From an uncultured Anaerolineaceae bacterium (GTDB lineage Bacteria; Chloroflexota; Anaerolineae; Anaerolineales; E44-bin32), in NCBI GenBank assembly GCA_964575425.1, contig CAZNRD010000006.1:20293-84292 (forward strand): a stretch of DNA of 64,000 bases, written 5' to 3'. The translations under genes and the position numbers were made by a program. Shown piece by piece: positions 5,446-55,577 of this stretch; position 1 is the first letter of the stretch; the number at the start of each line of letters is the position of its first letter. The notes beneath the pieces were generated by a model that saw only the letters and a program-made list of their open reading frames with translations, did no database searches and had not been told where the DNA came from.

Positions 5446-8127
<2,682 letters not shown>

Positions 8128-38637: not shown

Positions 38638-39558
38638 TCAGCTGAGCAGGCTCACCAGGATCGCCTTCTGTGCGTGCAGACGGTTTTCGGCCTGATCGAA
38701 GATCGCGGAGTGCGGCCCGTCCATCACCTCATCGGTGATCTCCTGCCCACGGTGCGCGGGTAGGCAGTGCATCACGATGGCGGAGGGATCCGCTTCGCCC
38801 ACGAGGCCCGCGTTTACCTGATATGGCGGGAAGGCCTTCCTGCGCTGCTCCGCCTCCGCCTCCTGGCCCATGCTGGTCCAGGTGTCCGTGTAGATGATGT
38901 GGGCTCCGCGGACGGCCTCGCGGGGATCACGCAGCAGGCGGATGCTGATGCCGGTCTCTTCCGCAAGCCTGCGGCCCAGATCGAGAGCCTGGGCCGGCAG
39001 CTCGTAGCCTTCCGGCGAGGCGATGGTGAAATCCAGACCCAGCCTGGCGCAGGCAACCAGGAGCGACACGGCCACATTGTTCCCATCGCCAACAAACGTC
39101 AGCCGCAGGCCCTCCAGCCTGCCGAAGTGCTCGCGGATGGTGAGCATATCGGCCAGAGCCTGGCAGGGATGATTGAAGTCGCTCAGCCCGTTGATGACCG
39201 GCACCGAAGCATGGCGGGCCAGCTCGAGCACGTGCTCGTGGGCGAAGACGCGCGCCATGATCGCATCGACGTAGCGAGAAAGAACCCGGCTCACGTCGGC
39301 GATGGACTCTCGCTTGCCCAACCCGACCTCGTCTGGCGAGAGATAGAGGGCGTCGCCGCCCAGGTGGCGCATCGCCATGTCGAAGGAGACGCGGGTGCGC
39401 AGGCTTGGCTTCTGGAAGACCATGGCCAGCACCTTGCCGGCGAGCAGCGGAACGTTGCCCCCGGCGCGCCGCTCCTCCTTGAGGCGAACGGCCAGGTCGA
39501 GCATGGCCTCGAGTTCATGGCGACGAAAGTCGGCCAGACAAAGGAAATGTCGTGTCAC
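38638..39558 (-). CDS. argF: ornithine carbamoyltransferase
   Basis: [16 protein letters not shown] and HCLPAHRG motifs. GTG at 39558 is preceded by GGGGAG. Confidence 0.9.
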
Positions 39559-39775
39559 AGCAGGCTCCCCGTGGCAGGATTCACAGTTGATGGTGAGTGA
39601 GTATAGCACGGCGAGGCGGTCTTCTGGGTTTCGTCACCCGGCGCTTCGCTCTATAATCATGCGCGAGCCGGAGGGCGTGGTTCGGCTCTGACCGGGAGAA
39701 GTGCTCGCGGTGGGCGGACGTTCTGGGGCGATGTCGGGAACCGAGGCGTCGTTCTGAAGGCGTGGGGGCTGGGCG

Positions 39776-41362
39776 GTGAGCGGAGGGCGCATTCTTCTCC
39801 TGGACGACGACGGGGGGACGGTCGCGCTGTGCCGCCGGCTGCTGCCTCGGGCCGGTTACCAGGTGACGTCGGCAACAAGCGCCGAGGAGGCGCTGCGCCA
39901 CCTGCAGCGCGACGCCTTCGATCTCCTGCTTGTCGATGTCCGGATGAGCGGGGCCGATGGGTCCGCGTTGATGCGGCAGGTGCCCGCGCTACAGCCGGAC
40001 ATGGCAGTCGTAGTGATGGCGGGCGGGGATAGCCTGGGGATGGCCATCCGGGCGCTGGAAGAGGGCGCCAGCGGATTGGTCGTGAAGCCGTTCGAGTCGA
40101 ACCAGACGCTTCTGCGTCAGGTCTCCAGGGCGATCGAAGCCAACCGCGCACGCCGCGAGGCCGCCCGTAGCCGTGCGCTGCAACCGATCTTCGACCTGAC
40201 GGAGAGCCTGTTCGGGGAAACCGAGGAGACCAGTCTCGCGACGCGGGTGGCCCACGCGGTGCGAGCCCAGCTTCGCTGCGCTGCCGTGGGGGTCTATTGG
40301 CGGGACGATGCTGGCACCTCTCCCCGCTCGTTGGCACGCCTTGGCGAGGCACCGAAACCGGAAGAGGCCGCAGCGTCGGTCCTCATGCCCACGGGGGAGC
40401 CCTTGGTCGTCACCCGGCTTGGGCCCGGGGGCAATCCTGCTCCGGGCGTGGATCGATGGCTGGCGGCGCGTGGCCTGGGGTCGGGGCTAGTGGTGCCGGT
40501 GAGGCGCACGCAGGGAATCTGCATTCTCCTGGCCGTTCGTGAGGAGCGCCAGGCGGCGTTCAGCGAAAGCGAGGAAGAACTGCTGATCCTGCTGGCGCGT
40601 CAGGCGGCAGTGGCTCTGGAAAACGCGCGACTTTACGGCGCGCTGCGTGACCATGTGCGGGAGATCGAGCGATCGCAGCAGCGCCTGATCCAATCGGAGA
40701 AGCTGGCAGCCATCGGACGCCTGACCGCGTCGATCGCCCACGAGGTGAACAATCCGCTGCAGTCGCTCCGGAACTGTCTCGACCTGGCTGGCCGGGATGG
40801 GCTGGAAGAGGGTCAGCAGAGAGAGTATCTCAGGCTGGCGCAGAAGGAACTCGATCGCCTCAGCTGGATCATGCGGCAGATGCTGGATTTCTACCGCCCC
40901 GAGGCTGCTGCTCGCCAGTGGGTGGACCTCAATGAGCTGCTGCGGGAGGTGGTGATGCTTACGGCGGCTCAATGTGAGTCGAGGGGGGTCAAGCTTACCC
41001 TGGACCTGGCCAAGGACCTGCCTCGCATCCGTGCGGTTGGCTTCCAGCTCCAGCAGGTGGCGCTGAATCTGGTTCTGAACGCAATCGAGGCCATGCCGAA
41101 AGGCGGCAAGCTTTCGATTCGCACCCAGGCGCGTCGCGAGAGTGTGGTGGTGACCTTCCGCGACACCGGCGTTGGAGTCCCTCGACAGGACCTGCCCAGG
41201 ATCTTCGAGCCATTCTTCACCTCCAAGGCTCGCGGCACCGGGCTGGGGCTGGCGGTGAGCTACGGCATCGTGTCAGCCCACGGAGGCGTCATCGAGGTGG
41301 AGAGCGATGTGGGCGCGGGCAGCACCTTTCGCGTCAAACTTCCTATCGGGGAAGGGGAATAG
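39776..41362 (+). CDS. hybrid sensor histidine kinase (N-terminal REC - GAF - HisKA - HATPase)
   Basis: REC (ILLLDDD..LLLVDVRMSGADG), a central GAF-like region, H-box SIAHEVNNPL, and G-boxes DTGVG..GTGLGLAVS. Confidence 0.85.
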   Translation: MSGGRILLLDDDGGTVALCRRLLPRAGYQVTSATSAEEALRHLQRDAFDLLLVDVRMSGADGSALMRQVPALQPDMAVVVMAGGDSLGMAIRALEEGASGLVVKPFESNQTLLRQVSRAIEANRARREAARSRALQPIFDLTESLFGETEETSLATRVAHAVRAQLRCAAVGVYWRDDAGTSPRSLARLGEAPKPEEAAASVLMPTGEPLVVTRLGPGGNPAPGVDRWLAARGLGSGLVVPVRRTQGICILLAVREERQAAFSESEEELLILLARQAAVALENARLYGALRDHVREIERSQQRLIQSEKLAAIGRLTASIAHEVNNPLQSLRNCLDLAGRDGLEEGQQREYLRLAQKELDRLSWIMRQMLDFYRPEAAARQWVDLNELLREVVMLTAAQCESRGVKLTLDLAKDLPRIRAVGFQLQQVALNLVLNAIEAMPKGGKLSIRTQARRESVVVTFRDTGVGVPRQDLPRIFEPFFTSKARGTGLGLAVSYGIVSAHGGVIEVESDVGAGSTFRVKLPIGEGE

Positions 41363-42145
41363 GTGGCCGATCGGGTGCTGGTAGTCGATGATGACAACAT
41401 CGGCCGCCGCACGCTGGCCGAGATCCTGACGCTGGAGGGCTTTGAGGTCGTCGAGGCTGAAGGTGGGCGGGCGGCGATCGAGGCGCTGGGAGCAGCGGAC
41501 TTCGACGTCGTGCTGCTGGACCTGAAGATGCCCGATGTGGACGGGCTGGCCGTGCTCGAGGCCGCCTCCCATCTGGCGCCGGATGCGCAGGTCGTCGTGT
41601 TCACCGCGCACGGATCACTGGGGTCGGCGATCGAGGCAGTCCGCCACGGCGCTTTTGACTACCTGCTCAAGCCGCTGAGCAGCAGGGACATTCTGGCCTG
41701 CGTGCGCCGAGCCGTCGAGAAGCGCCGAGCGCAGGTTCGTCAGCAAAGGTTGCTGGCCCACCTGGAGCAGGCTGTGCGCGAGCTTCAGGCGGTGGAAGAC
41801 ACGAGCGATGCGCCCGTGGTGACGGTGGGGGCGGTGCGGCTCGACGTGTCGCGCCGCAGGCTGGAGAGGGGCGAGCAAAGCGTGGAACTCACGCCGGCGG
41901 AGCTGAGGCTGTTTCTGGCGCTCTATCGGCAGCGTGGGCGGGTGGTGGGGTTCCGCGACTTGGTGGACCAGGTGCAGGGTTATCAAGTCGAGACGTGGGA
42001 GGCTCCCGCGATGGTGCGGCCTGTGGTGAGCCGGCTGCGTGAGAAGCTGCGGCAGGTCGGCGGATCGGCAGAATGGATCGAGACCGTGCGCGGGAGCGGT
42101 TACCTGATGAGTGAAGGTGGCGGGGCTAGGCGGGCGGAGGGGTGA
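41363..42145 (+). CDS. OmpR-type response regulator (REC + winged-helix DNA-binding)
   Basis: VLVVDDD..VVLLDLKMPDVDG and a C-terminal LTPAELRLFLAL...VVSRLREKL...TVRGSGY. Confidence 0.85.
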   Translation: MADRVLVVDDDNIGRRTLAEILTLEGFEVVEAEGGRAAIEALGAADFDVVLLDLKMPDVDGLAVLEAASHLAPDAQVVVFTAHGSLGSAIEAVRHGAFDYLLKPLSSRDILACVRRAVEKRRAQVRQQRLLAHLEQAVRELQAVEDTSDAPVVTVGAVRLDVSRRRLERGEQSVELTPAELRLFLALYRQRGRVVGFRDLVDQVQGYQVETWEAPAMVRPVVSRLREKLRQVGGSAEWIETVRGSGYLMSEGGGARRAEG

Positions 42146-43052
42146 GCCAACGGAGCCAACCCCGGCCTCGGCGAGGCAGGCGGAGGCCGGCGTGGCGTTC
42201 GGTCAAGAGCAGGGCCAGGACGAGAAGACCAGCGCCGAGCCACTGTCCGGGGGCCAGAGCTTCGCGTAGCCATAGTCGGGAAAGGCCGACGGCCACCAGC
42301 AGCTCTGCAAGACCCAGGAGCGTGCTCTGCATACTGCCAGCGTGCTTGACGCCGGCGAACAGAAACAGCCTTGAGAGGAAGGTGACGACGGTCAGACATG
42401 CCAGCGGCAAGGCTTCAGAGGCGGTGAGGGTGGCCAGTGGCGGCGAGAACAAGGCGTATGCCGGGATGACGATGGCTGCCATGGCGGCCAGAGTGTAGAA
42501 GGCGACGGTCGGCGGCGGGGCTTCGTACAGGATGCGCTCGTTGATGGGGATGTGGAGCGCGTACAACAGGCTGGCCAGGAGCAGAAAGAGTGCCGCGCGC
42601 AGGTCCACATCACTGGGGGAAGCACGGGTGAGCAGAATCACGGCGGGCACGCTCAAGAGCAGGCGCAGCACCGTGAGTGGGGTCTGCCGCTGGCCGTCCA
42701 GGTACAGTATCAGGGCAACAAACACCGGGTACAGCGAGAACAAGAGCTGAGCCAGGCCGGCGTCCAGGCGGGCCAGCCCTGAGTAGAAGAAAAGAGACCC
42801 CAGGCCGTTGAGCCCGCCTGCCAGCAGGCAGCCGACGAGGCCGAGGGGGTAGATGTAGAGATCCCGCCTGCGGAACAGGGCCAGCACGAGCAAGAGCAGC
42901 ACTGCTGACCCCGCCGTGCGGATGGCGACGACGGCCAGCGGCGGCACACCGGCCTCCAGGGCTTGCTTGCCGAAGACCGGTGTGGTTCCCATCAGCAGGG
43001 CGGAGGCCAGGGCGAAGCGAAGTCCGCGCGTGTGAGCCGGAGAGGAACTCAT
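42126..43052 (-). CDS. EamA/DMT-superfamily transporter
   Basis: About 10 predicted TM helices in two repeats. It lies 14 nt downstream of the ThrC-REC gene, and its 3' end overlaps the convergent regulator by 20 nt. Confidence 0.8.
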   Translation of the reverse strand: MSSSPAHTRGLRFALASALLMGTTPVFGKQALEAGVPPLAVVAIRTAGSAVLLLLVLALFRRRDLYIYPLGLVGCLLAGGLNGLGSLFFYSGLARLDAGLAQLLFSLYPVFVALILYLDGQRQTPLTVLRLLLSVPAVILLTRASPSDVDLRAALFLLLASLLYALHIPINERILYEAPPPTVAFYTLAAMAAIVIPAYALFSPPLATLTASEALPLACLTVVTFLSRLFLFAGVKHAGSMQSTLLGLAELLVAVGLSRLWLREALAPGQWLGAGLLVLALLLTERHAGLRLPRRGRGWLRWLTPPPA

Positions 43053-43066
43053 CCAGCGCGTCCTCT

Positions 43067-44749
43067 CTAGCCCAGGACGCGGCCGATTTCCTGCAGCAGA
43101 TCTTCGTCGAGGTACTCGCCCTTGGTGATGAGGCGGGCGATCTGCCCTTCCAGAAGCTTCTTCTCCGCCGGCGTCAGGTCCATGGCGGTGACGACGATCA
43201 CGGGAATGTTGGCAGTTTCTGGCTGCTGGCGCAGGTGGTCGAGCACCGCGAAGCCATCCATCTCGGGCATCATCAGGTCCAGCAAGATCAGGTGGGGCGG
43301 GGTGCGGCGCGCCTCGGCCAGGGCCTCGTCGCCCGAGGCGGCTTCCTGGATGGCGAAATGGCCGTGGGCCTGCAGGATGCGTTGGAGCAGGCGTCGCGTT
43401 CCGGCGTCGTCGTCGATGATCAGGATGCGCTGAACGTGTTCCTGATCGAGCTCCGCCAGGGCTGCCAGCAGCCCCTCGCGGGGCGTCTCGCGCGTCAGGG
43501 CCGTCGGCACGGCGACGTCCTGCGCCCAGCCTTCGCCGAGCAGGCTCTCCTCCACCGGCAAGGTGTGTCCTGAGCAGTTCACGACCACGATCTGGTCAGG
43601 CCGTATCTGGCCGCCGCGGGCAAGCTTGATCAGCCCGGCGAAGGCGACAGCTGCGGCCGGTTCGAGCGAAAGGCCTTCGGTCTTGGCCACGATGTGCATG
43701 GCGCGGAACGCGTCCTCGTCGCTGACGCTCTCGAAGGTGCCGCCTGGCCCTTCCAGCATCCGCTCACGGAGGAGGGTGTAGGTTCGTCCCGGATCGCCGG
43801 TGCTCAGGGTGGCGATGTGGGTGCGGGGCGACTCCACTGGGGTGACGCTGGCGGCACCGCGATGCCAGGCGTCGGCCATGGGGGCGCAGCCAGAGGTTTG
43901 AATGCCGGCAACGGCGGGGACGTTCGGGACGAGCTCGAGGGCAACGAGTTCCTCGAAGCCTTTCAGCACGCCCATCGGGCCGATCCCGCCGCTTACGGAC
44001 TGGATGTACCAGTGGGGGGCGCGCCAGGGGGTGACCGGGCGGGTGCCGCGCGCTTCGGGGGCGGCCAACCCCCCGAGCTGCTCCGCAATCTCATAGGCGA
44101 TGGTCTTCATGGACTCGACGGCGGCGATGCTGCGTGTGCCTCGGTCGAGGTACAGGCCGCGCTGCTGGGCGAACTCTGCCGCCAGCCGCTTCGCTTGGTC
44201 GTACGTCCCGGTGACCTTGATCACCTGTGTGCCGTACAGCGCGACTTCGCGCATCTTCTCTGCCGGAACCAGGCTTGTGAGGAAAGCCCACAGGCGGATG
44301 CCGGCGCGCGCACAGTAGGCCGCATACGACATGGCGACGTTTCCCGTCGAGGCGACGACGGCTTCCCTCAGGCCAGCCTCCTTCAAGACGGCCACGGTGA
44401 GGGCGGCCTGTCGGTCCTTGAAAGAGGCCGTCGGGCTCTGACGTTCGTCCTTCACGAAGAGGTGTGGCAGGCCGAGGATCGCTCCCAGGTTGCGGGCAGG
44501 GAAGAGCGGCGTGCCACCCTCGCCCATGGGAAGCATTGGCGGGACGGAGCGAACCGGGAGTAGCTCCAAGTAGCGCCACAGGTCGAACGCACGGCGGGCC
44601 ACAAGGGTCGGAAGGGTGCGCATGAGCGGGGCCAGGTCGTAGCGGGCCTCGCGCCAGTGGCTGCCGCAGCGCGGGCATTCAAGGGAGGTCGGATGATACG
44701 GCTCCCGGTGTCCGCAGTCGAGACATTCCACGTCACAGTGCAGGGCCAT
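43067..44749 (-). CDS. threonine-synthase-like PLP enzyme fused to a C-terminal response-regulator receiver domain
   Basis: aa 1-~415: zinc ribbon CLDCG..CPRCG, PLP lysine motif SFKDR (K111), and glycine loop SVSGGIG. aa 441-560: a complete REC (DD446/447, D491 in LILLDLMMPEMDG, T521, K543). Confidence 0.85.
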   Translation of the reverse strand: MALHCDVECLDCGHREPYHPTSLECPRCGSHWREARYDLAPLMRTLPTLVARRAFDLWRYLELLPVRSVPPMLPMGEGGTPLFPARNLGAILGLPHLFVKDERQSPTASFKDRQAALTVAVLKEAGLREAVVASTGNVAMSYAAYCARAGIRLWAFLTSLVPAEKMREVALYGTQVIKVTGTYDQAKRLAAEFAQQRGLYLDRGTRSIAAVESMKTIAYEIAEQLGGLAAPEARGTRPVTPWRAPHWYIQSVSGGIGPMGVLKGFEELVALELVPNVPAVAGIQTSGCAPMADAWHRGAASVTPVESPRTHIATLSTGDPGRTYTLLRERMLEGPGGTFESVSDEDAFRAMHIVAKTEGLSLEPAAAVAFAGLIKLARGGQIRPDQIVVVNCSGHTLPVEESLLGEGWAQDVAVPTALTRETPREGLLAALAELDQEHVQRILIIDDDAGTRRLLQRILQAHGHFAIQEAASGDEALAEARRTPPHLILLDLMMPEMDGFAVLDHLRQQPETANIPVIVVTAMDLTPAEKKLLEGQIARLITKGEYLDEDLLQEIGRVLG

Positions 44750-44782
44750 GATTCATCTCGCTTTGGTGCCGCCTGGGGCCAC

Positions 44783-47110
44783 TCATGGAGACACGGTGGG
44801 GTGCCGAAGGAGGCGTGAGAGCCAGCCCTGCACCTCGGCCATCATATCGGCCGGGGCCAGGCCGGATTGCTCCAGCAGGACAGTCCAGCGGTGAAACAGG
44901 TCGGCCTGCTGTTCTGGGGTGAAGGCCAGGGGTGCCAGCAGCACCAGCGGCGCTTTCGCAGTGCGCTCGTCGTGCTTGATTGCCTCAAGAGCGTCCAGGC
45001 CGTTCGTAGTGGGAGTGGTCAGGTCGATCAGAACGACGTCCGGGGGCTGCGCCTGGGCAACCTGCAGCGCCTCCTGGCCATCGGCGGCGAACACGACGCG
45101 GATCTCGGCACGATGCTCGAGCATCGCCCGCAGCTCCTGGTGCGCCTGTGGTTGATCGGAGATGGCCAGCACGAGGGGTCGTGGATGCTCGCGCGAGCAC
45201 AGGCGGAGCATGGCCGCCACCAGGTCATCCTGACGCACAGGCGGAGTGAGCCACTCCACCGCGCCGAAGCAGGCGCCTTGCTCGCGGTCGCGCCGCAGGC
45301 TGGCCAGGACCACCGGGGTCGAGCGCGTGTCGGGGGCGGCCTTCAGGCTCGCCATCAGTTGCCACGCGACGCTGTTCGGCAGAAGCGGATTCAGCACAAC
45401 CGCTCCCGGCGGACTGCCGCGCACAGTGGGGATGGCCTCCTGGGGCCTAACCGCGGAGTGCAGCTGGTAATGCGGATCAGACCAATGCTGGCGGTACCAA
45501 TCGAGAACCCCGCGATCGTCGTCGATGATGACGACCAGGGAGGAGGGGGGCGCCTCGGTTGCGGCCCCTTGCGGAGGCTCGACCGGCAGCGAGAAGGAGA
45601 ACGTGCTGCCCTCGCCGAGCTTGCTGTCCACCCAGATGCGGCCCCCGTGCAGTTCGACAAGGTGGCGGCAGATGGAGAGGCCGAGCCCGGTGCCTCCGGT
45701 CTTGCGTGTGGGAGAGGCATCGACCTGGGAGAAAGGCTCGAAGAGCTTCGCCTGGTGCTCGGCAGCGATGCCCGGACCGGTGTCGAACACGGAGACCACG
45801 ATTTCCCGGCGACCGTTGGCCTGATCCAGGCGCGCCGTCGCCCCCACCTGTCCCCGTTCGGTGAACTTCGTGGCATTGGAGATCAGGTTCAGGAGCACCT
45901 GCCGGACCCGGATGCTGTCGGCCTGGATGGGCGGCAGGTGTTCGGGGAGATCGAGGACAAGCTCAATGGGCTTGTCCTTCACCAGCCCCGCGGCCGTCGA
46001 CATGACGCTGCGAATGATCTCGAGCAGATCCACTTCGCTGAAGGCCAGCTCCATCTTGCCGGCCTCGATGCGCGACAGGTCGAGGATATCGTTGATCAGC
46101 CCCAAGAGATGCTGGCCCGAGTTGTAGATGGCGGTGAGGTCCTGTGCCTGGGTCTCATTGATGGGGCCGTCGATTCCCTTGAGGATGACGCGCGAGAACC
46201 CGATGATGGAGTTGAGCGGTGTGCGAAGCTCGTGGCTCATGTTGGCCAGGAACTGGGACTTGAGGCGATCCGCCTCGCGCATCTCCTCCAGGGCCTGGCG
46301 GGTGAGCTGGTAGCTACGGGCGTCGGTCAGAGCCTGGGCCAGCTGCTGGGCGGCCGCCTCCGCGAGGAGGCGATCGTCCTCGCTCCAGCCCCGGCCATCT
46401 TCGCGCGGCCCCAGCTCCAGCACGCCAAGCAGGCGCTCCCGGTCGAGGACGGGGATGACCAGGCGGGAGTCGCTGGGTGTGGACACTATGTCGCTGTCGA
46501 GCGGCTGGACCGACCGGGCGTCGGCGCGATAGCCGGCGAGGTGCCGTGCCGGCAGGGTCGGTGCGGCCTCGGCGGTGATCTGCGGAGCGGGTTCCGGTTG
46601 GGCCGCTCTGGGGGCCGAAGCCAGCGGGGCGAATGCTGGCGGCTCAGCAACTGCAGGCAATTTGGCAGGGGTCGGAGGTGCGGCCGCGTGCTTGCGGCGC
46701 TCGAGAACTCGGATGACGCCACGGTATCCTGCTCTCAAGCCAGATCCGTCGAGGCGCGGGACCGCGCCCAGCCAGAGTGAGACCTGGTCGCCGTCCTCGG
46801 TGGACGCATCGAGGATTAGGCCGCGAATCTCGTCGCCGCTTTCGAGGGCGCGGGCAAGGGCTGCTGACGAGCCGGCCGATAATCCGAGGAAGTCGAGCCG
46901 CTTGCCGATGAGGTCGGCCGAAGGCATTCCGAAAGCGGCTTCGATGTCGCGGCTGCACCAGGTGACGTTGCCCTGGAGGTCAGTCTCCCACATCCAGGCG
47001 CGTGGGGATTCCCGAGGGCGCGCCGCCCTGGGTGGGCTGGAGGTGGGGGACTGGGATGGGGCGCCCTGGGAGTTGCCATGCGGTCTGTTTGAGGCAGGGT
47101 TCTGGTTCAT
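44783..47110 (-). CDS. hybrid histidine kinase: PAS - short GAF - HisKA - HATPase - pseudo-receiver - receiver
   Basis: H-box MSHELRTPLN (H293) and G-boxes DTGPGI, GGTGLGLSI. REC1 has Asn at the acceptor position (VVLNPLLP). REC2 has VVLIDLTTP (D696). Confidence 0.9.
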   Translation of the reverse strand: MNQNPASNRPHGNSQGAPSQSPTSSPPRAARPRESPRAWMWETDLQGNVTWCSRDIEAAFGMPSADLIGKRLDFLGLSAGSSAALARALESGDEIRGLILDASTEDGDQVSLWLGAVPRLDGSGLRAGYRGVIRVLERRKHAAAPPTPAKLPAVAEPPAFAPLASAPRAAQPEPAPQITAEAAPTLPARHLAGYRADARSVQPLDSDIVSTPSDSRLVIPVLDRERLLGVLELGPREDGRGWSEDDRLLAEAAAQQLAQALTDARSYQLTRQALEEMREADRLKSQFLANMSHELRTPLNSIIGFSRVILKGIDGPINETQAQDLTAIYNSGQHLLGLINDILDLSRIEAGKMELAFSEVDLLEIIRSVMSTAAGLVKDKPIELVLDLPEHLPPIQADSIRVRQVLLNLISNATKFTERGQVGATARLDQANGRREIVVSVFDTGPGIAAEHQAKLFEPFSQVDASPTRKTGGTGLGLSICRHLVELHGGRIWVDSKLGEGSTFSFSLPVEPPQGAATEAPPSSLVVIIDDDRGVLDWYRQHWSDPHYQLHSAVRPQEAIPTVRGSPPGAVVLNPLLPNSVAWQLMASLKAAPDTRSTPVVLASLRRDREQGACFGAVEWLTPPVRQDDLVAAMLRLCSREHPRPLVLAISDQPQAHQELRAMLEHRAEIRVVFAADGQEALQVAQAQPPDVVLIDLTTPTTNGLDALEAIKHDERTAKAPLVLLAPLAFTPEQQADLFHRWTVLLEQSGLAPADMMAEVQGWLSRLLRHPTVSP

Positions 47111-47168
47111 GGTGATGCTTTCCGTTCCCGAGAGTCCTTCCTAGAGTGTCCCGCCGATGCGCGCATAG

Positions 47169-50100
47169 CTATTGCGGGCCTCCAGACGGGATGTTCGTCC
47201 CGGATTTTGAGCCATCGCCGGACGTCTCGAGCGGACCTCGGTGGAAGTCAGCGGCGAGGCGGATGACGGCTTCCTGCGCGCCGAGGGCGCGGCGCATCTC
47301 TGTCACCGCGGTGCGCAGGATGGCATCCACGTCGCGGGTGGAGCGGATCTTGCCCGTGATTTCCATCAGCGCTTCTTCACGCTGGGCCCGGCGCAGGGCG
47401 TCGTGGTACAGGCGAGCGTTCTGGATGGCCACACCGAGCTGGTCGCTTAGAACCTCCAGGACGGCGATCTCGTCCTCGGTGAAGGTGTGGGGACGCGTGT
47501 GCTGGACGTCGAGCGCCCCGATGACGCGGTCACCCGAGCGGAGGGGGAGCCCCAGCTCGGTTTGAGTGTCGGGGAGGTGTGGATTGGGCTTGAAGTATGG
47601 ATCCTGGCTGGCATCGTGGGCCACATAGGCCTGGCCGGTCTGAGTGACCTGGCCGACGATTGACTGCGAGCCGACAGCGAGCCGATGTCCGCTGGCCTTC
47701 ATCTCACGCCCGGCATCGCCAGTGGCCTCGCGCAGGACGGCGTACTCGCCCTTGTCGTCCACAAGGAAGATAGAGACATGGTGGAAGCCAAAGCGGTCGC
47801 GCACGAGGCTGATGGCGCGCGCCAGCAGCGTGTCGACGTCCAGCAGCGCTGTGGCGTCGCGTGCGATCTCGGCGGCGATGCGCAGCTGCGCGGCGCGGCG
47901 GTGGATCTCCTCCAGCAGCCGCGCCTGCTCGAGGGCGTTTGCCACCTCATCCGCCACCGCATCCAGCACAAGCCTGTCGTCTTCGCTCCAATCGCGAATG
48001 GGCTGCGGAGCGTCAATCCCCAGCCTGCCGATCACTTCGCCGCGCAGCGAGATCGCGGTCTCGAGGGGCATGGAGGGCGGCAGGTCCTCTCGCCTGCGCC
48101 CCTTCTGCAGGTACTCGAAGTACGTCCTGGCCGCGCCGGCGCGTCGGGCGGCGAAGAGCTGAGTCCAGGATTCCTCAGCTCGCTGCCGGTACAGGGCGTC
48201 GAGGTGTTGCAGGCTCTGTTGCATCTCGTCGAAGAGTCTGGCATTCTCGAGCGCGACGGCCACCAGGCCGGCGAGCATTTCCATCATTTCGATGTCGTCG
48301 TCGCTGAGGCCGCCTGCCAGCAGGCGTTCGACTGACAGGGTGCCGATGGCCTGGCCCCGGCTCAGGAGGGGAACAGCAAGGACTGCGAGAGGATCTCCCG
48401 GGGCAAGGCGCGCCCCCAGGATAGAGTCAGCGGAGAGATCGGGGATCTGGACGCGGCTCTTGAGGGCGGCGGCCCGGCCGAGCACACCCTGTCCAAGTGG
48501 CAGGGCCTGGCCCACGGGAATGGGCCGGATGCCGGGAGCCCGAGCGGCGCCGCGGATGATCAGTTCCTTGCCTTCGACGAGGGCGATGCTCACCCGGTCG
48601 TACCCGAAGTCCTGCTGGATGGCGGAGGCAGCCTGGATGATCACCTGACCCAGCCCAAGCTCCTCGCTGAGCTGGCGGGACAGTTCGATGATGCGGCGGC
48701 GCTGGCCGGCGCGGCGCGTCTCGACCCCGATCAGGCTGACGTTCTCGATGGCCACTGCCAGCTGATCGGCCATCGTCTGTAGGACGACGACATCGGCCTC
48801 TTCGAAGGCGTTGGCCTCGCGGCTCTGGACGTCGAGGGCGCCGATGATGCGGTTTCCGATGCGCAGCGGCAGGGCCATTTCCGAGCGCGTCTCCGGCAGG
48901 TCGGGGTTGGCAAAGTGGACGGCGTCAGCCCCCACGTCCAGCGCGATGCGCGGCTTGCCTGTGCCGGTGACGTAGCCCACGATGCCCATCTTGCCGACGC
49001 CGAGGCGGTGCCCGCGCTGGAGCATCCGCTGCCCGCCTTCGGAAGAAGCGGCGCGCAGGACAGCCCATTCGCCCGTTTCGTCAATCAGAAAGATGCCGGC
49101 GTGGTAGAAGTCGAAGCGCTCGGAGATCAGATGGACAGTCTCGTTCAGGAGGCGGTTGATGTCGCGTGTGGCGGCGGCGTCGCGGGCGACCTCGGCCGCG
49201 GTCCGGATCTGCTTCGTTCTCTCGTCCACGCGCGCTTCCAGTGAGCGGTAGAGGCTGGCCAGGTCCTCGGCCATGCGGTTGAAGGTGGCCGACAATCGCC
49301 CGACCTCGTCCGGTCGGTCGACCGGCACGCGGCGATCCCAGTCTCCCTGGGCGAAGCGCTCGGCGAACGCCGCCAGCGTTCCAAGCGGCCGGATGGAGCG
49401 GGAGGTGGCCCAGGGCACGATGAGGAACACCAGCACCACCGTGCCGAGCATCAGCGCGATGGTGAAGGTGGTGAGGGTGTTCAGGCCGCCGAAGGCCGCG
49501 CTCTGCGGCACTTCGGCCACGATCGCGGCGCCGATCTCCGGGACCCACTGGTACACCGAGAGCATGGCGTTGCCAACAGGGTCGACGAACTCGGCCTCGC
49601 CTGCCGTGCTGGTGGCCAGGGCGGCGAAGACCGGGTGATACTCGGCCTGCATCGTTCGCACATCGAGGAAGATCGCCTGGAAGCTCAGCAGCGTCTGCGG
49701 CGGCAGCGCCAGGTAGAGGGCGCTGCCGGGCATCTGCGAGCGCCGGTTTCCGCTGACCAGGTTGTACACCTCCTCACTGTTGGAGACGCCCACCAGCACG
49801 GCTCCGGGCATGGGCGTCACGGAGACGAGCGAGACAGGTGAGATCCCGCTGAACAGCCGGGTGTGGGTCAAGGCGGTGCCGTTGAAGGGGAGCTGGCTGA
49901 TGCCGCTCACGTGCCGGCCCTGCCACTGCGCGGGGTGCGAGGCCAGGATCAAGCCGTCGGAGAGCCGCACCACCATGATCCCGGTGAACCAGTCTCGCGG
50001 GGTATTGGCGTTGCTGGAGCGGAGGAGCTCCTGGACACGGGCGAGAGCCTCCTCCGACTCCGGCCCTCCCGGCTCCAGCAAGCGCGCGATGTCTTCCGCG

Positions 50101-50372
50101 AGCGAAGGATCGCGGGCGAGGTTGCGCAGAAGCGGCTCGCGGGCGCGCCGCCACTCCAGGAAGGCGGTAGTCTGGGCCTCGGCGCCGCGCTCCATCTGAC
50201 TGATGACCTGCTGCCGGATCAGCTCACGGGCACGGAAGTAGGCAGCCGTTCCCAGAGCGACGATGGGCAGGATGATGAGCGGCAGCAGTGTCAGCGTCAG
50301 CCGCGCCCCCAGGCTGGCACGCGGACCGCGCGGGATTCTGATCCGACCCTGAGAGGCGGAATCGGTGCTCAT
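47169..50372 (-). CDS. membrane sensor: TM - extracytoplasmic domain - TM - HAMP - multiple GAF domains, no recognisable output domain
   Basis: 1067 aa. HAMP region is IRPLGTLAAFAERFAQGDWDRRVPVDRPDEVGRLSATFNRMAEDL. There are at least four GAF repeats with the recurring block HRL.VG..SIVG.V...G......D.......NP.LP.T.SE...PL..G.R.IGALDVQ. ATGA overlap with the upstream gene. Confidence 0.85.
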   Translation of the reverse strand: MSTDSASQGRIRIPRGPRASLGARLTLTLLPLIILPIVALGTAAYFRARELIRQQVISQMERGAEAQTTAFLEWRRAREPLLRNLARDPSLAEDIARLLEPGGPESEEALARVQELLRSSNANTPRDWFTGIMVVRLSDGLILASHPAQWQGRHVSGISQLPFNGTALTHTRLFSGISPVSLVSVTPMPGAVLVGVSNSEEVYNLVSGNRRSQMPGSALYLALPPQTLLSFQAIFLDVRTMQAEYHPVFAALATSTAGEAEFVDPVGNAMLSVYQWVPEIGAAIVAEVPQSAAFGGLNTLTTFTIALMLGTVVLVFLIVPWATSRSIRPLGTLAAFAERFAQGDWDRRVPVDRPDEVGRLSATFNRMAEDLASLYRSLEARVDERTKQIRTAAEVARDAAATRDINRLLNETVHLISERFDFYHAGIFLIDETGEWAVLRAASSEGGQRMLQRGHRLGVGKMGIVGYVTGTGKPRIALDVGADAVHFANPDLPETRSEMALPLRIGNRIIGALDVQSREANAFEEADVVVLQTMADQLAVAIENVSLIGVETRRAGQRRRIIELSRQLSEELGLGQVIIQAASAIQQDFGYDRVSIALVEGKELIIRGAARAPGIRPIPVGQALPLGQGVLGRAAALKSRVQIPDLSADSILGARLAPGDPLAVLAVPLLSRGQAIGTLSVERLLAGGLSDDDIEMMEMLAGLVAVALENARLFDEMQQSLQHLDALYRQRAEESWTQLFAARRAGAARTYFEYLQKGRRREDLPPSMPLETAISLRGEVIGRLGIDAPQPIRDWSEDDRLVLDAVADEVANALEQARLLEEIHRRAAQLRIAAEIARDATALLDVDTLLARAISLVRDRFGFHHVSIFLVDDKGEYAVLREATGDAGREMKASGHRLAVGSQSIVGQVTQTGQAYVAHDASQDPYFKPNPHLPDTQTELGLPLRSGDRVIGALDVQHTRPHTFTEDEIAVLEVLSDQLGVAIQNARLYHDALRRAQREEALMEITGKIRSTRDVDAILRTAVTEMRRALGAQEAVIRLAADFHRGPLETSGDGSKSGTNIPSGGPQ

Positions 50373-52537
50373 CGCAGGTCCTCCAGCTCGCTGGTTGCGG
50401 CAGGCGCCTCCAGGCTCTCCGCCAGGCGAGCGTAGGCGCGAGCCGCGCCCAGCCCCTCGCTCAGCTCGCGCGCCGCGGTCATCAGGATCGTGTCGATGTC
50501 GGCCGCGCGTCTCACGCGCGTCGTGATCTCATGGATGAGCCGCTGGCGGCGCGCCGTCCGGCGAACCTCGTCCAGCAGCCGGGCGTTCTCAAGCGCCGTC
50601 CCCACCTGGCTTGCAATCGTGGCAAGCAGGGCAGCGTCGTCATCGGTGAAGCGGCGCTCCTGCTCCCGGTCCTGCACGGCAAGCACGCCAAGGTTGGTCT
50701 CACCCACAAGCATGGGGACGCCCAGCCAGGAGGCGATGCCTTTCTCCGGAAGGGTCAACTCGAGTGCCGCGGCCTGGGCCTCGACGTCCTCCGTCAGGAG
50801 CAGAGGCTGGCGTGTGCGGATCACGTGCGCGATGGGGTCGTTCGCCAGGTCGATTTCCCCTCCTTCGCGTATCTCGCCCCCCTTGGCGGTGTAGGGGAAC
50901 TGCACGCGTTGATGCTCCTCATCGAACAGAGCGATGATGAGGTCGGCCTCGCCCAGGACCTGGCGGACCTGGTTGTGGAGCACGCGGTAGAGGGCGCCGA
51001 CGTTGAGCAGCTGGGAGGCGGCCTGGCTCACCCGGTTGACGACTTCCAACTCAGCCAGGCGGCGCTGCTCTTCCGCATACTGGCGCGCCGCCTCCAGAGC
51101 CTGGCCTGCCTGGCTGGCGACGGCCTGCAGGACGGCGACGTCTTCCTCATCGAATGGGGGTTCGGCATCGGCCTTGCGCGCGGCGATGGTAGCCACGACC
51201 TCGTCTCGAACGAAGACCGGGACAGCCACCTCATGGCCGCCCTCGGCCAGCACCGGCTGCCCCAGTTCGGTCGCTTCTCTGGACACGTCCGGGCGCGGTG
51301 GAAGGCCATCCGGGGCCGCGCCACGCAGGTGCAATTCAGCCGCCTCAGCGGAACGAGCCAGGCGCTGCCACGATGCCGCCAGGCGGACATCCCCTGCGGC
51401 TTCGAGGCCGGCGCTGGCCTCGCGAAGCAGCCGGATATACTCCAGCGCGACGGCCAGCTCGGAGGCGATGGCCTCCAGGGCGCTGACATCCTCGTCGGCG
51501 AAAACCTCGGGCTGAGTGCTTTGGACATCCAACGCCCCGAGCAGGCGACCGCCCGCAAGGATCGGAACAGCGGCCTCGGACCGGGTTCCAGGCAGCAGCG
51601 GATTCTTGAAGTAGAACGGGTCCTTCTCGACGTCCTGGGCGACTCGGGGCTGCTGATTGGCGGTCACCCAGCCGACGATCGAGGCGCTGCCCACTGCCAG
51701 CCGATGCTTGCGGGCCAAGAGCTGTCGTCCCGCCTCGCCCGTGCTTGCGCTGAGTTCCGCCCACAGCCCCGTGGCGTCGAGCAGGAAGATCGAGGCATGA
51801 TGGAAATCGAAACGCTGGCGCATCGACTCGACGGTGCGAGTCATCAGATCGTTCGCATCGGGGGTTTGAGTCGCCAGTCTGGCGACCTCTGCCGCCGCCT
51901 CAATCCGGGCCCGCTGCCTGGCTTGCGTCTCGCCGCCGCCGCCGGGGCGCGCCTCGAGGGCCCGCTTCTCATCCTGCAGGTCGACCAGTCGCTTCTGCTG
52001 CTCTTCCAGTGCCCTGTTGTTCGCGCGCACGATCCCCGCGACGGTGAGCGTCAGGGCAGTCGAGATCAACACCAGGGCGACCACCGGGGTGATCCAGCGG
52101 GCGAGTTCGGCTGCCGGAGTCCACGCGGCGACTGCTGCGAGACCCACCATGACAGCCGCGAGGGAAGCCAGGCCGCCCGGAAGTCCAAACAGCATGGCGC
52201 CCATGATCGGCCCAATCACAACCCACCCGACGCTTGGCCCGCCCAAGCCCTGGGTGACCAGCCCCGCCAGCCCCAAGGCCAACGTGAGCCCGAGCAGGCT
52301 TCCCGCGCGCAGGCCGTAGGGCAATCGCGGCACGAAAGTGGCGACCATCAACCACACGACAGCCGCGCCCACCATGCCAATGACGAGCCACTGGCGACTC
52401 TGCACCGCGATTTGGAGTGGGCCCGCGTGGGTCCAAAGACCGACAAGCGTGACGGCGAGGATCAGGCCGCTGAGCAGGCGCGGACGGAGCAGGGGCGATT
52501 GAGGAAGCAAAGGTTCGAAGGGGACTCGCATCGTCAT
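50369..52537 (-). CDS. polytopic membrane protein (about 6 TM) - coiled coil - three GAF domains, no recognisable output domain
   Basis: 722 aa with a hydrophobic N-terminal 170 aa, the coiled coil NRALEEQQKRLVDLQDEKRALE, and then GAF repeats of the same type as the neighbouring genes. Confidence 0.8.
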   Translation of the reverse strand: MTMRVPFEPLLPQSPLLRPRLLSGLILAVTLVGLWTHAGPLQIAVQSRQWLVIGMVGAAVVWLMVATFVPRLPYGLRAGSLLGLTLALGLAGLVTQGLGGPSVGWVVIGPIMGAMLFGLPGGLASLAAVMVGLAAVAAWTPAAELARWITPVVALVLISTALTLTVAGIVRANNRALEEQQKRLVDLQDEKRALEARPGGGGETQARQRARIEAAAEVARLATQTPDANDLMTRTVESMRQRFDFHHASIFLLDATGLWAELSASTGEAGRQLLARKHRLAVGSASIVGWVTANQQPRVAQDVEKDPFYFKNPLLPGTRSEAAVPILAGGRLLGALDVQSTQPEVFADEDVSALEAIASELAVALEYIRLLREASAGLEAAGDVRLAASWQRLARSAEAAELHLRGAAPDGLPPRPDVSREATELGQPVLAEGGHEVAVPVFVRDEVVATIAARKADAEPPFDEEDVAVLQAVASQAGQALEAARQYAEEQRRLAELEVVNRVSQAASQLLNVGALYRVLHNQVRQVLGEADLIIALFDEEHQRVQFPYTAKGGEIREGGEIDLANDPIAHVIRTRQPLLLTEDVEAQAAALELTLPEKGIASWLGVPMLVGETNLGVLAVQDREQERRFTDDDAALLATIASQVGTALENARLLDEVRRTARRQRLIHEITTRVRRAADIDTILMTAARELSEGLGAARAYARLAESLEAPAATSELEDLR

Positions 52538-52565
52538 GCCAATCCTTCTGACAGGTGCCGGTGCA

Positions 52566-54437
52566 TCATGCCGGCTCCTCGTCGGCTGGCACCGGTTCTG
52601 GCGCCTGCCTGCCGTCTTCGAGCGTTACCAGACGCACGACAACGTCCGGCCGCCCAAGCGCCTGGTGAACGAACTGGCCTGCAGTCTCCAGCACCCGATC
52701 GACATCGGTCAGGCCGGACATGGCTGTCGTCACCTCACTGATCAGGCGAGCGCGTTCAGCGGCGAGCGCCGATCTCTCGGCCAGCCTGGCGTTCTGAATG
52801 GCGGCGCTCAACTGGTCGGCCAGCATCTGCAGGATGGAAAGGTCTTCCGGGCTGAAGGCGTGCGGTTCGAGGCTCTGCACGTCGAGGGCGCCGAGGATGC
52901 GCCCGCCCACCTGAAGGGGAACGGCAGCCTCGGAGCGCGTGCCCGGCAGGAGTTCGTTCTTGAGGTGGATCGGGTCGTGGCTGACATCGGAGGCGACTCG
53001 CGGCTGGCCGTTGGCGGTCACCCACCCGATGATGGACTGTGATCCCACGGGCAGGTTGTGGCCGCGAGCGACAAGAGCGGCTCCGGCCTCGCCGGTGGCC
53101 TCTCGCAGCACTGCGTTCTTGCCGGTCTCATCCAGCAGGAAGATGCCCGCGTGGTAGTAGCCGAAGCGTTCGCAAATCAGCTGCACCGCGCGGCGCAGAA
53201 GCTCCTGCAGGTTTGGGACGGAGGTGGCCGCCCGGGCGACCTCTGCTGCCGTGCGCACCTGCCGCGTCCGCTCCTCGACGCGCGCTTCGAGCGTGCGGTA
53301 GAGGCCGCTCAAGTCCTCGGCCATGCGATTGAACGTGGCGGCCAACTGCCCGACCTCGTCCGGGCGCTCGACCGGGACGCGGCGGTCCCACTCCCCGCGG
53401 GCGAACCGCTCGGCGACCGTCGCCAGGGTTGCGAGCGGCCGGATGGCGCGCGAGATGGCCCAGGGAACGATGACAAACACCATCACCACCCCCCCTAGCA
53501 TCAAGGCCACGGTGAAGCCGGTGAGCGTGTTCAGGCCGGCGAACACAGTGCTTTGGGGAATTTCCAAGATGACGGCGGTCCCGAGCGAGGGGAGCCAGCG
53601 GTAGACCGAGATCACGGGTACGCCCTTCAGGCCAGTGTGCTCGATCTGGCCCGTCTCGGCGGTGTTGAGCGCGTCGAAGACTGGATGGTGGGCCGAGTGC
53701 ATCTCCACCCAGGGCCAGGCGGCAGCAGCCCTCACGAACCCCACGATCTTGTCTGGGGGCAGGCCCAGGTAGAGATCACTGTCGGACGTGATCGGGGGGG
53801 CTTCCTCATGGGTGAGGCGGTGTATCTCCAAATCGTTGGCGATGCCGATCAGGGCGGCCTTGGGCTCTCCCTCGCCGGTGGGTATTGGCATCAGCGTCAG
53901 GAGAGAAACCTCCGGGGCCCCGGGGAAGGCTGCGGACGTGGTGATGTGGGTGGCAGAGGGTGGCATCGCGGCGATGTTGTTCACGCGGAGACCTTGCCAC
54001 TGGTCCGGAACCGACGCCAGGATCAGTCCATCGGAGAGTCGGACGACCATCATCCCGGCATACCAGTCGCGGGGGGATCCGCTGTTCAGGGTCTGCAGCT
54101 CCTGCTGAAGGGCCGGCAGGACCGAGGCGGCCGTTCCTCGCTGGTCATCTTGGAGGAGGCGGGGCACCAATGTGAGGATGGTTTGGTTCTGGCTGGCGCT
54201 CATCATTCGCAGCTCGTGGGTTCGGCGCCATTCCTCGAGGGTGTTGACCTGAGCGTCGACGCTGTGCTCCATCTGGGTGACCACCTGCTGGCGGAGCAGC
54301 GCGCGGGCACGGAAGAAGGCGGCCATCCCCAGAACCAAAATGGGCAGGATAATGAGCGGCAGCAGCGCCAGCGCCATCCTGCGGCCCAGGCGCTCCTGAG
54401 GCTGGAGCCGGGCGGGGTCGACACGTTGTCGCTGCAT
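52566..54437 (-). CDS. membrane sensor: TM - extracytoplasmic domain - TM - HAMP - two GAF domains, no recognisable output domain
   Basis: Its N-terminal 330 aa are a clear paralogue of 47169-50372 (LLPLIILPI..FFRAR.L.RQQV..QME; MVVRLSDGLILAS.P.QWQG). The ATG at 54437 has RBS GGGAGATGGAG. The GTG at 54455 is the ORF-track alternative. Confidence 0.85.
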   Translation of the reverse strand: MQRQRVDPARLQPQERLGRRMALALLPLIILPILVLGMAAFFRARALLRQQVVTQMEHSVDAQVNTLEEWRRTHELRMMSASQNQTILTLVPRLLQDDQRGTAASVLPALQQELQTLNSGSPRDWYAGMMVVRLSDGLILASVPDQWQGLRVNNIAAMPPSATHITTSAAFPGAPEVSLLTLMPIPTGEGEPKAALIGIANDLEIHRLTHEEAPPITSDSDLYLGLPPDKIVGFVRAAAAWPWVEMHSAHHPVFDALNTAETGQIEHTGLKGVPVISVYRWLPSLGTAVILEIPQSTVFAGLNTLTGFTVALMLGGVVMVFVIVPWAISRAIRPLATLATVAERFARGEWDRRVPVERPDEVGQLAATFNRMAEDLSGLYRTLEARVEERTRQVRTAAEVARAATSVPNLQELLRRAVQLICERFGYYHAGIFLLDETGKNAVLREATGEAGAALVARGHNLPVGSQSIIGWVTANGQPRVASDVSHDPIHLKNELLPGTRSEAAVPLQVGGRILGALDVQSLEPHAFSPEDLSILQMLADQLSAAIQNARLAERSALAAERARLISEVTTAMSGLTDVDRVLETAGQFVHQALGRPDVVVRLVTLEDGRQAPEPVPADEEPA

Positions 54438-54439
54438 GG

Positions 54440-54847
54440 TCACTCCATCTCCCACACGGGCTCGCCCGTCAACGCGCGGCGAATCTGGTCGGGGAATCGA
54501 TCGGGGTCCAGAGGCTTGCCCAGAAAGCCGTTGAAGCCGGAGGCGCGGGCTCGCGCCATCTGGTCATCGCTGACGTAGGCCGTCACGGCCACCACAGGGA
54601 TGTCCTTGAGGCTGGGCGACTCGCGGATGCGGCGCAGCGCATCGTAGCCATCCTCGTAGGGCAGGCGGATGTCCATCAGGATCAGGTCGAGGCGAGGCAG
54701 CGCGCCGGCGTACTCCACGACCTGGTAGCCAGAGGTCTTCCACTCGCAGCGGATCCCCATATGGGCGAGCATGCGCGCCATAAGGACAAAGTTGGCGACA
54801 TTGTCTTCGACGATCAGGATCGTGGCGTCTTTCACCGAGGCCCTCAC
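54440..54847 (-). CDS. single-domain CheY-like response regulator
   Basis: ILIVEDN..LILMDIRLPYEDG..AVTAY..KP. Confidence 0.9.
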   Translation of the reverse strand: MRASVKDATILIVEDNVANFVLMARMLAHMGIRCEWKTSGYQVVEYAGALPRLDLILMDIRLPYEDGYDALRRIRESPSLKDIPVVAVTAYVSDDQMARARASGFNGFLGKPLDPDRFPDQIRRALTGEPVWEME

Positions 54848-54859
54848 TGGCTCTCCCCT

Positions 54860-55243
54860 TCAGGTTGGACGGTGCAGGAAGCGGGCGATCTGCCTGGGGA
54901 GGTAGTCCACATCGATGGGTTTCTGGATGTAGCCGTCGCAGCCGGCTGCCAGCGTGCGCTCGCGATCGCCCCGCATGACGTTGGCGGTGATGGCGATGAC
55001 GGGTACTGCCGCCAGCGTCGGATCAGCCTTGAGCCGGGAGGTGAGGGTGTATCCGTCGACCCCGGGCATGTTGATGTCGACCAGGATGAGATCCGGGCGG
55101 TGACCATCGATGACCCGAAAGGTCTCCGCTGCGTTGCCGGCCTCCAGGACGATGTACCCCTCGGCCTGCAAGATGCGGCGGACGAGGACGCGGTTGTCGA
55201 CGTTATCCTCAACGTACAGGACGGTGTACGGACGTTCGTGCAC
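54860..55243 (-). CDS. single-domain CheY-like response regulator
   Basis: VLYVEDN..LILVDINMPGVDG..AITAN..KP. GTG start. It is the first gene of the minus-strand operon. Confidence 0.9.
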   Translation of the reverse strand: MHERPYTVLYVEDNVDNRVLVRRILQAEGYIVLEAGNAAETFRVIDGHRPDLILVDINMPGVDGYTLTSRLKADPTLAAVPVIAITANVMRGDRERTLAAGCDGYIQKPIDVDYLPRQIARFLHRPT

Positions 55244-55445: not shown

Positions 55446-55464
55446 CGTATCCCGGTTGCCCGAG

Positions 55465-55536
55465 AGCGGGTGATGGGATTCGAACCCACGAATGGTAGCT
55501 TGGGAAGCTACTGCCTTACCGCTTGGCGACACCCGC
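55465..55536 (-). tRNA. tRNA-Gly (anticodon CCC)
   Basis: The hand-folded 72-nt cloverleaf has acceptor GCGGGTG/CACCCGC, anticodon arm GTAGC-TTCCCAA-GCTAC, and T arm GTGGG-TTCGAAT-CCCAT. CCA is not encoded. Confidence 0.95.
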
Positions 55537-55548
55537 AGAGGCGGTCGG

Positions 55549-55577
55549 ATTATAAGGAGCGGGCAGGGCAATGTCAA
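55549..55577 (-). promoter_or_regulatory. consensus sigma70-type promoter TTGACA-17 nt-TATAAT driving tRNA-Gly
   Basis: On the minus strand, exact TTGACA (55572-55577) and exact TATAAT (55549-55554). The tRNA 5' end is 12 nt downstream of the -10 element. Confidence 0.65.

Follow-up and report, generated by a model that had tools for sequence, protein, structure and literature searches.

What does a bacterial signaling cluster control when its last genes code for a metabolic enzyme and a transporter? In the overwhelming majority of cases, response regulators act through DNA binding, second-messenger turnover or chemotaxis, and a run of genes from an uncultured Anaerolineaceae bacterium raises this question. 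The run is located in a 64,000-nt stretch of contig CAZNRD010000006.1 (GCA_964575425.1), hereafter called the window, and all coordinates given below are window positions unless a related locus is named. The gene at issue, ThrC-REC, codes for a pyridoxal phosphate (PLP) enzyme resembling threonine synthase (ThrC) that carries a receiver (REC) domain at its C-terminus. The answer that we favor, at a probability of roughly 0.55, is that the run represents an Anaerolineae-wide two-component module that has a metabolic enzyme, and not a transcription factor, as its dedicated effector.

Domains were assigned by searching the window proteins with Pfam and NCBIfam profiles. The minus strand contains an uninterrupted run, from position 55243 down to 42126, of eight protein genes separated by intergenic gaps of -4 to 58 nt. 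From first to last, these genes are:

54860-55243, minus strand: RR1, a single-domain receiver of 127 aa (Pfam Response_reg, 94.8 bits).
54440-54847, minus strand: RR2, a single-domain receiver of 135 aa (Pfam, 77.9 bits).
52566-54455, minus strand: HAMP-GAF sensor with a transmembrane segment, an extracellular domain, a second transmembrane segment, HAMP and GAF, without an output domain; C-terminal tail (see below) at 52602-52802.
50369-52537, minus strand: MASE11-GAF protein, a MASE11 membrane domain followed by GAFs, without an output domain; tail at 50396-50596.
47169-50372, minus strand: HAMP-multiGAF sensor with a transmembrane segment, an extracellular domain, a second transmembrane segment, HAMP, three full GAFs and one partial GAF; tail at 47247-47429.
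44783-47110, minus strand: histidine kinase with PAS, an Ala/Pro-rich linker, a partial GAF, HisKA (His293), HATPase and two receivers, REC-A and REC-B.
43067-44749, minus strand: ThrC-REC, with an N-terminal Cys4 ribbon, a PALP enzyme domain, a linker (residues 401-423) and the C-terminal receiver.
42126-43052, minus strand: EamA/DMT transporter with two EamA repeats.

A preliminary description of this DNA had counted nine genes, although its own list names the same eight that we observe; a tRNA-Gly(CCC) gene upstream of RR1 may have been the ninth. The remainder of that layout was recovered, with all genes on the minus strand, the same gaps, and domain assignments that agree with Pfam. This includes its central point, namely that the sole non-kinase catalytic product is a PLP enzyme, here seen to bear an intact receiver, with a DMT/EamA transporter coming next. 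Note that a -16 nt overlap is possible at the junction of RR2 with the HAMP-GAF gene when the listed GTG start is used, and that this overlap is gone when an ATG six codons downstream is used instead.

Conservation of the run was analyzed by scanning for ThrC-REC in one genome per species, which returned at least 580 relatives, and by mapping the window proteins on the 80 loci that were kept. Across these loci the ThrC-REC protein exhibits 57-64% identity over the best aligned segment. Homologues of ThrC-REC form more than 7,000 protein clusters, and the best 120 of these are essentially all full-length fusions from Chloroflexota/Anaerolineales with 60-89% identity. Each ThrC-like gene recovered from the 80 loci is fused to a receiver (81/81). 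A histidine kinase is present directly upstream on the same strand in all 73 loci that have room for it, at a median gap of 19 nt, and EamA is directly downstream in 72 of 73 (median gap 22 nt). The kinase in these relatives is itself preceded by a same-strand run of GAF genes that varies in length from none to more than 10 kb. A further scan, centered on RR2, revealed very strong conservation of this receiver, with 70-88% identity in at least 496 metagenome contigs. In every sufficiently long locus RR1 directly precedes RR2, with the GAF array coming next. There are also compact versions (L097, L107 and L122) in which the GAF array leads straight into the kinase, ThrC-REC and EamA. The exact order of three GAF proteins seen in the window is retained in its own subclade (L081-L083, L086, L097, L109, L134 and L138). 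Since it recurs in hundreds of genomes, this arrangement is far beyond chance. The cluster is established as a conserved functional unit in which ThrC-REC is the constant non-kinase member. The preliminary description had proposed a gene-neighborhood comparison as a check, and the genes do behave as a co-conserved unit across the Anaerolineae, with neighbors that do not vary freely. Separately, a 7.6-kb contig with multi-GAF, kinase and ThrC-REC genes of the Anaerolineae type (L076, JAIWHF010000122.1; coverage 0.45) is filed under a 'Methanosarcinales archaeon' metagenome-assembled genome and is very likely a binning contaminant.

The same unit can be followed into deeper relatives. When clustered at 50% the fused family collapses into about six clusters, two of which consist of ThrC-REC-REC proteins. 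A sister clade (L162, L164 and L165) has a GAF/PAS kinase, ThrC-REC(-REC), single receivers and a GNAT acetyltransferase, and lacks EamA. The upstream kinase of L162 reaches 2,753 aa. The single receivers number two in L164 and L165 and one in L162, the first being RR1-like. Because the sister clade retains these components, the deepest conserved core comprises a GAF-rich kinase, ThrC-REC and single-domain receivers. The terminal gene is then either an exporter or an acetyltransferase, both of which are ways of handling an amino acid.

We next consider whether ThrC-REC has the features of a working enzyme. A phmmer search of the PDB matched it to the threonine synthases of Aquifex (2ZSJ) and Thermus (1UIM) at E=1e-39. 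An AlphaFold model built with 119 sequences has a pLDDT of 81.7, with the linker at residues 401-423 disordered; a version built with 12 sequences (pLDDT 56) was discarded. Using this model, Foldseek returned bacterial threonine synthases with target-normalised TM-scores of 0.83-0.86, and also the cysteate synthase CapA2 at rank 3. By sequence and by model, ThrC-REC thus has the fold-type II PLP fold of threonine synthases. The PLP lysine Lys111 (SFKDR), S134-T135-G136-N137 (ASTGN) and the S253-G254-G255-x-G257 loop show no or almost no variation among 119 homologues. The N-terminal Cys4 ribbon (C9, C12, C25 and C28) and, in the receiver, D446, D447, D491, T521 and K543 are all invariant in the same set. 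Both halves of the fusion look competent.

A C-terminal regulatory domain on such an enzyme is not without parallel. Other ThrC-like proteins of the PRK08197 type carry a C-terminal LeuA allosteric domain (P0170 and P0182) in the same position as the receiver, and thus provide a precedent for a regulatory domain where the receiver sits. More broadly, fusions of PRK08197-type proteins (P0170, P0182, P0195 and P0270) were seen to involve C-terminal LeuA, N-terminal inositol monophosphatase or N-terminal RNase H/RVT_3 domains, and the clade seems prone to gaining extra domains.

How phosphate could reach the ThrC-REC receiver was addressed by analyzing the kinase and the remaining receivers. Inspection showed that RR1 and RR2 have the complete set of receiver residues (acidic pocket, acceptor Asp, Thr and Lys), and that the H-box and N/G boxes of the kinase are intact. 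REC-A of the kinase has Asn574 at the acceptor site and a Pro at the Lys site, positions that are Asp and Lys, respectively, in 57 of 57 relatives. REC-B retains Asp696 and has Ala726 where 52 of 57 relatives have Thr/Ser and Gln748 where 53 of 57 have Lys. The Asp-to-Asn change in REC-A is also found in a 53%-identical relative (L097), which argues that REC-A is a stable pseudo-receiver and not a recent lesion. Four intact receivers and one degenerate receiver had been described earlier; the observed numbers are three intact (RR1, RR2 and ThrC-REC) and two degenerate (REC-A and REC-B). Kinases of the relatives have two receivers in 53 cases, one in 14 and none in 8, and they are usually far larger than the window kinase, with a median of 1,473 aa that includes a GAF array of their own. 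No Pfam match to a histidine phosphotransfer (Hpt) family was found at E<=0.01 in the eight proteins or in two adjoining convergent genes, with a divergent Hpt elsewhere in the genome being possible. The lack of an Hpt match, together with kinase receivers that are degenerate in the window and missing altogether in 8 relatives, favors direct, branched phosphotransfer to the stand-alone receivers, which appears more likely than a His-Asp-His-Asp relay. The multi-input phosphorelay of the earlier proposal is probably not what this kinase operates.

Analysis of the three output-less GAF proteins revealed that they share more than their GAF domains. The extracellular domains of the HAMP-multiGAF (47169-50372) and HAMP-GAF (52566-54455) proteins are paralogous. 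In addition, all three GAF proteins of the window, and 249 of 252 GAF-only open reading frames (ORFs) of the related loci, end in a common C-terminal module of about 50 residues (consensus ALENARLLEetqrRAeRERlv.EIT.KIR...D.d.iL.TAv.EL...LG...v.I.L) that is also present in the sister clade (L164). Single-sequence queries with this tail matched zero kinase-containing ORFs, and a broader tail profile also matched GAF-GAF junctions within 51 GAF-containing kinase ORFs. Against the PDB, the profile matched the N-terminal helix and first strand of phytochrome/cyanobacteriochrome-class GAFs (E=1e-13 to 1e-6). On the basis of these matches, the C-terminus of the GAF-only proteins consists of an inter-GAF connector helix and the beginning of another GAF, the rest of which is lacking. 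We speculate that this helical tail could link the GAF-only proteins to the kinase through dimerisation or docking.

Two other ideas about these proteins were considered and rejected. One is that the tails complement the half-GAF of the kinase to form a split GAF; tail plus half-GAF amount to only ~90 of ~150 residues, half-GAFs occur inside the GAF-only proteins themselves, and the same tail is found in relatives whose kinases have complete GAFs. The other is that the full GAFs bind a bilin; by inspection they are without the chromophore cysteine, leaving a generic GAF resemblance. As a side observation, the GAF array on a complete Anaerolineales chromosome (L013) includes two genes that are absent from the window, one for a ParA/MinD-like ATPase (AAA_31; 2633-3433) and one for a 127-aa DUF7793 protein (7701-8084) directly before the kinase.

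The transporter at the end of the run matches PF00892 at 102 bits in two stretches, giving two tandem EamA repeats. In E. coli, RhtA exports threonine and homoserine and EamA/YdeD exports O-acetylserine and cysteine; both are members of the DMT/EamA superfamily. The window protein shares this superfamily and the two EamA repeats with RhtA and EamA/YdeD, and cargo of this type would fit a ThrC partner. It differs from these characterized exporters in that its NCBIfam matches (TIGR00950 and YedA) are only weak.

Convergent to the run are two further signaling genes:

41363-42145, plus strand: OmpR-type response regulator (REC and Trans_reg_C), convergent to EamA.
39776-41362, plus strand: REC-GAF-HisKA-HATPase kinase, next to the OmpR-type regulator and in the same direction.

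The 3' end of the OmpR-type gene overlaps the 3' end of EamA by 20 nt (42126-42145), and no terminator-like hairpin was detected between the two genes. The statements that the locus has one kinase core and no DNA-binding output hold inside the run, but not for this adjoining pair, which is conserved in 40 of 65 relatives. The REC-GAF-HisKA-HATPase protein is a possible downstream receiver-kinase. This leads to one alternative, in which the PLP domain senses a ligand or is a pseudo-enzyme. ThrC-REC would then chiefly take up phosphate as a sink or work as an adaptor, and the module would exert its real effect on transcription by way of the convergent kinase and OmpR-type regulator. The frequency of the pair and the N-terminal receiver of its kinase, which could take phosphate from the main kinase, are what this alternative can call upon. 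However, ThrC-REC is present throughout, and the pair is missing from 25 of 65 loci and from the sister clade. The invariant PLP lysine, cofactor loops and Zn ribbon point to catalysis, and in one locus (L163, see below) the enzyme persists without any kinase. We regard this alternative as very improbable.

Returning to the reading with the enzyme as effector, we infer phosphotransfer from the kinase to ThrC-REC and a resulting catalytic effect, along with roles for RR1 and RR2, a cargo for EamA and a transcriptional side branch, in the following manner. The single histidine kinase would integrate its own PAS/GAF signals, with the membrane HAMP/MASE11-GAF proteins and their common connector-helix tail probably adding input to it. 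Phosphate would then pass from it straight to the stand-alone receivers, with no Hpt in between. RR1 and RR2 would be auxiliary acceptors that function as phosphate sinks or adaptors. The receiver of ThrC-REC would form the effector branch, where its phosphorylation state would allosterically turn the PLP enzyme on or off. The likeliest chemistry would be conversion of O-phosphohomoserine to threonine, or a related threonine/phosphohomoserine elimination, and EamA would carry the product or substrate over the membrane. A second branch, at the level of transcription, may run through the convergent REC-GAF kinase and OmpR-type regulator. In its most far-reaching form, this proposal holds that phosphotransfer gates the PLP enzyme, with a kinase fed by an expandable array of output-less membrane GAF proteins switching on synthesis of threonine, or of a bioactive amino acid from the threonine pathway, that is then exported by EamA or acetylated by GNAT. 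This would be the first receiver-controlled PLP enzyme; we hold this far-reaching version tentatively, at slightly short of even odds.

There are several observations that weigh against an enzyme effector of this kind. First, ThrC-REC scores below every curated threonine-synthase cut-off (135.6 vs 167.1 for TIGR00260; 218.6 vs 303 for NF006050). Second, Thermus residues T88, N154, S155, R160 and N188 align with V138, R203, G204, A210 and G254 throughout the whole fused family. We take these Thermus residues to be the ones that bind the phosphate of O-phosphohomoserine. The expected phosphate-binding arginine, equivalent to Thermus R160, was not found in the ThrC-REC alignment, and the substrate may not be O-phosphohomoserine; R203 and R206 of an invariant DRGxRS motif might act as substitute phosphate-binding arginines. 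Third, EamA has no equivalog-level match (TIGR00950 at 58.5 bits with a cut-off of 230.2; YedA at 19 bits with a cut-off of 270). Finally, signaling control is not universal, since in one relative (L163; 45% identity by BLASTP) the receiver on the enzyme is weak and the neighborhood lacks a kinase.

The first two of these points lend themselves to a different explanation, close to that of the preliminary description, which had proposed gated synthesis and export of an amino-acid-derived small molecule. In this view ThrC-REC is not a threonine synthase but makes a specialized amino-acid-derived molecule under sensor control, either a signal or an antimetabolite such as a vinylglycine-type compound, that is exported or, in the sister clade, N-acetylated for self-protection. 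Low synthase scores and a family-wide remodeling of the presumed phosphate-binding positions fit such an enzyme. The same fold has also been recruited for other chemistry, as with CapA2, and an exporter in 72 of 73 loci or a GNAT in the three sister-clade loci is a pattern typical of the handling of bioactive amino acids. However, no further biosynthetic genes are present alongside, and the nearest unfused relatives (P0126 and P0133; 48-51% identity) reach the curated cut-offs and so score as true threonine synthases. The P0126 cluster is located in a cyanobacterium-like contig, and P0126/P0281 are 51% identical to the window protein. Note that P0126, though above the synthase cut-offs, is also without an R160 equivalent. 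The gene context of L163, and an ornithine transcarbamylase (OTCase) gene found after the cluster both in the window and in 12 relatives, likewise point to primary metabolism. Taken together, we consider a specialized product unlikely, and the product of ThrC-REC may be plain threonine.

The metabolic context has a bearing on this. In L163 (10001-12724) the neighbors are an OTCase directly after ThrC-REC, a class III aminotransferase and pyruvate kinase. The argF-like OTCase gene that follows the cluster in the window (38638-39609) and in 12 of 80 loci is accompanied by genes for alanine dehydrogenase and a CoA transferase, and this association may represent an old linkage to amino-acid metabolism genes. 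These observations suit a special case of the favored reading, in which ThrC-REC is the sole housekeeping threonine synthase of the Anaerolineales, the receiver ties synthesis to a growth or nutrient signal, and EamA is an overflow valve for threonine or homoserine. Intact catalytic residues and the very wide conservation of the fusion also suit a housekeeping role. A tblastn search with the Aquifex synthase revealed no second ThrC-like gene in the window and fetched loci, which at ~2.4 Mb is too small a sample to provide more than weak evidence. Several points argue the other way. In cyanobacteria, what may be the closest unfused lineage is found together with a canonical ThrC2 (PMC12172450), so that this clade is often a second copy. 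The NCBI pipeline labels the fused protein merely as 'pyridoxal-phosphate dependent enzyme', and a dedicated sensor array of up to ~ten GAF genes is odd for a housekeeping step. We view a sole housekeeping role as rather unlikely, though one that deserves some weight.

How does the favored arrangement, a receiver-controlled metabolic enzyme, compare with known systems? We know of no PLP amino-acid enzyme that is the output of a response regulator. Receiver-controlled enzymes are already known as a kind. Like CheB, PleD/WspR, the RpfG HD-GYP protein and PP2C-type regulators, ThrC-REC has an enzyme linked to a receiver that is presumably set by Asp phosphorylation, and its gene is located beside that of a kinase. 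It differs from them in that the receiver is C-terminal and the enzyme is a fold-type II PLP enzyme and not a signaling or protein-modifying one, an output of a type that was not found in the literature searched. Likewise, neither a fusion of threonine synthase to a receiver nor this operon was described in the full texts searched, in line with the statement in the preliminary description that no characterized system of this layout was known.

With regard to the enzyme half, ThrC-REC shares the fold and the SFKDR and ASTGN motifs with class II threonine synthases (Thermus 1UIM, Aquifex 2ZSJ and B. subtilis 6CGQ), and has a Zn ribbon as in PRK08197. It differs from these solved synthases by its low identity (27-31% in structure-based alignments), its scores under the cut-offs, the five changed positions relative to Thermus and the presence of a receiver. 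Plant threonine synthase, which is activated by S-adenosylmethionine, IlvA with its C-terminal regulatory domain, and the ThrC-LeuA_dimer fusions also have a regulatory domain on a catalytic core. These are controlled by small-molecule ligands, whereas ThrC-REC would be controlled by phosphotransfer from a sensor kinase. Another divergent ThrC clade, the cyanobacterial 'unique ThrC' lineage of Microcystis, also has an N-terminal extension, and both synthase and threonine-deaminase activity have been measured for it (PMC12172450). P0126 may belong to this lineage, which unlike ThrC-REC has neither a receiver nor an operon with a kinase or transporter. Finally, the Lqs/Cqs alpha-hydroxyketone quorum-sensing clusters (LqsA/CqsA; PMC3376566) resemble the run in that a sensor kinase and a receiver protein without a DNA-binding domain are encoded together with a PLP enzyme whose substrate is of the amino-acid type. 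Their synthase is an unfused fold-type I enzyme whose product is sensed by the kinase, in contrast to the fold-type II PALP enzyme of ThrC-REC. The proteins of the two systems are not homologous, and the likeness is conceptual only.

If the favored reading is correct, a receiver would act post-translationally on a PLP enzyme of the core-metabolism type, extending two-component control to the synthesis of an amino acid or of an amino-acid-derived molecule. In the far-reaching form given above, it would also add a new class of response regulator output, one that dominates in a major environmental phylum. The at least 580 stretches of the genome collection that contain the module belong to Anaerolineae, which are abundant in sludge, sediments and digesters and whose physiology is poorly understood. 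The module also raises the question of how output-less membrane GAF proteins with a truncated-GAF connector helix signal to a kinase, and its pieces appear small and soluble enough for direct biochemistry.

The region upstream of RR1 contains two additional features:

55464-55536, minus strand: tRNA-Gly(CCC) (Rfam), 220 nt upstream of RR1.
55549-55577, minus strand: sigma-70 promoter (TTGACA, 17-nt spacer, TATAAT; 12/12 matches), upstream of the tRNA.

No other promoter-like sites were found between this promoter and RR1, and the tRNA promoter may read into the signaling operon. The tRNA is the sole Rfam match in the window, with no riboswitch or leader detected. A terminator scan was uninformative, giving fewer matches than shuffled sequence. 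The G+C content of the window is 63-69%. An overlapping 139-aa ORF in another frame of the RR1 region has no domain match. Among related loci, a same-strand tRNA-Gly(CCC) is present upstream of RR1 in 31 of 49, within 500 nt in 25 of these 49, and no tRNA species other than Gly(CCC) occurs at this position.

The wider flanks code for unrelated metabolism, including the OTCase, alanine dehydrogenase and CoA transferase mentioned above as well as CinA, two FAD oxidoreductases and a Liv-type ABC transporter. For CinA, the two oxidoreductases and the Liv transporter, co-conservation is limited to the closest subclade. Upstream of CinA, the two neighboring FAD-dependent oxidoreductase (DAO) ORFs have 83 nt in common as listed (57947-58029), and the start of the downstream DAO ORF was probably mis-set by the mechanical ORF call.

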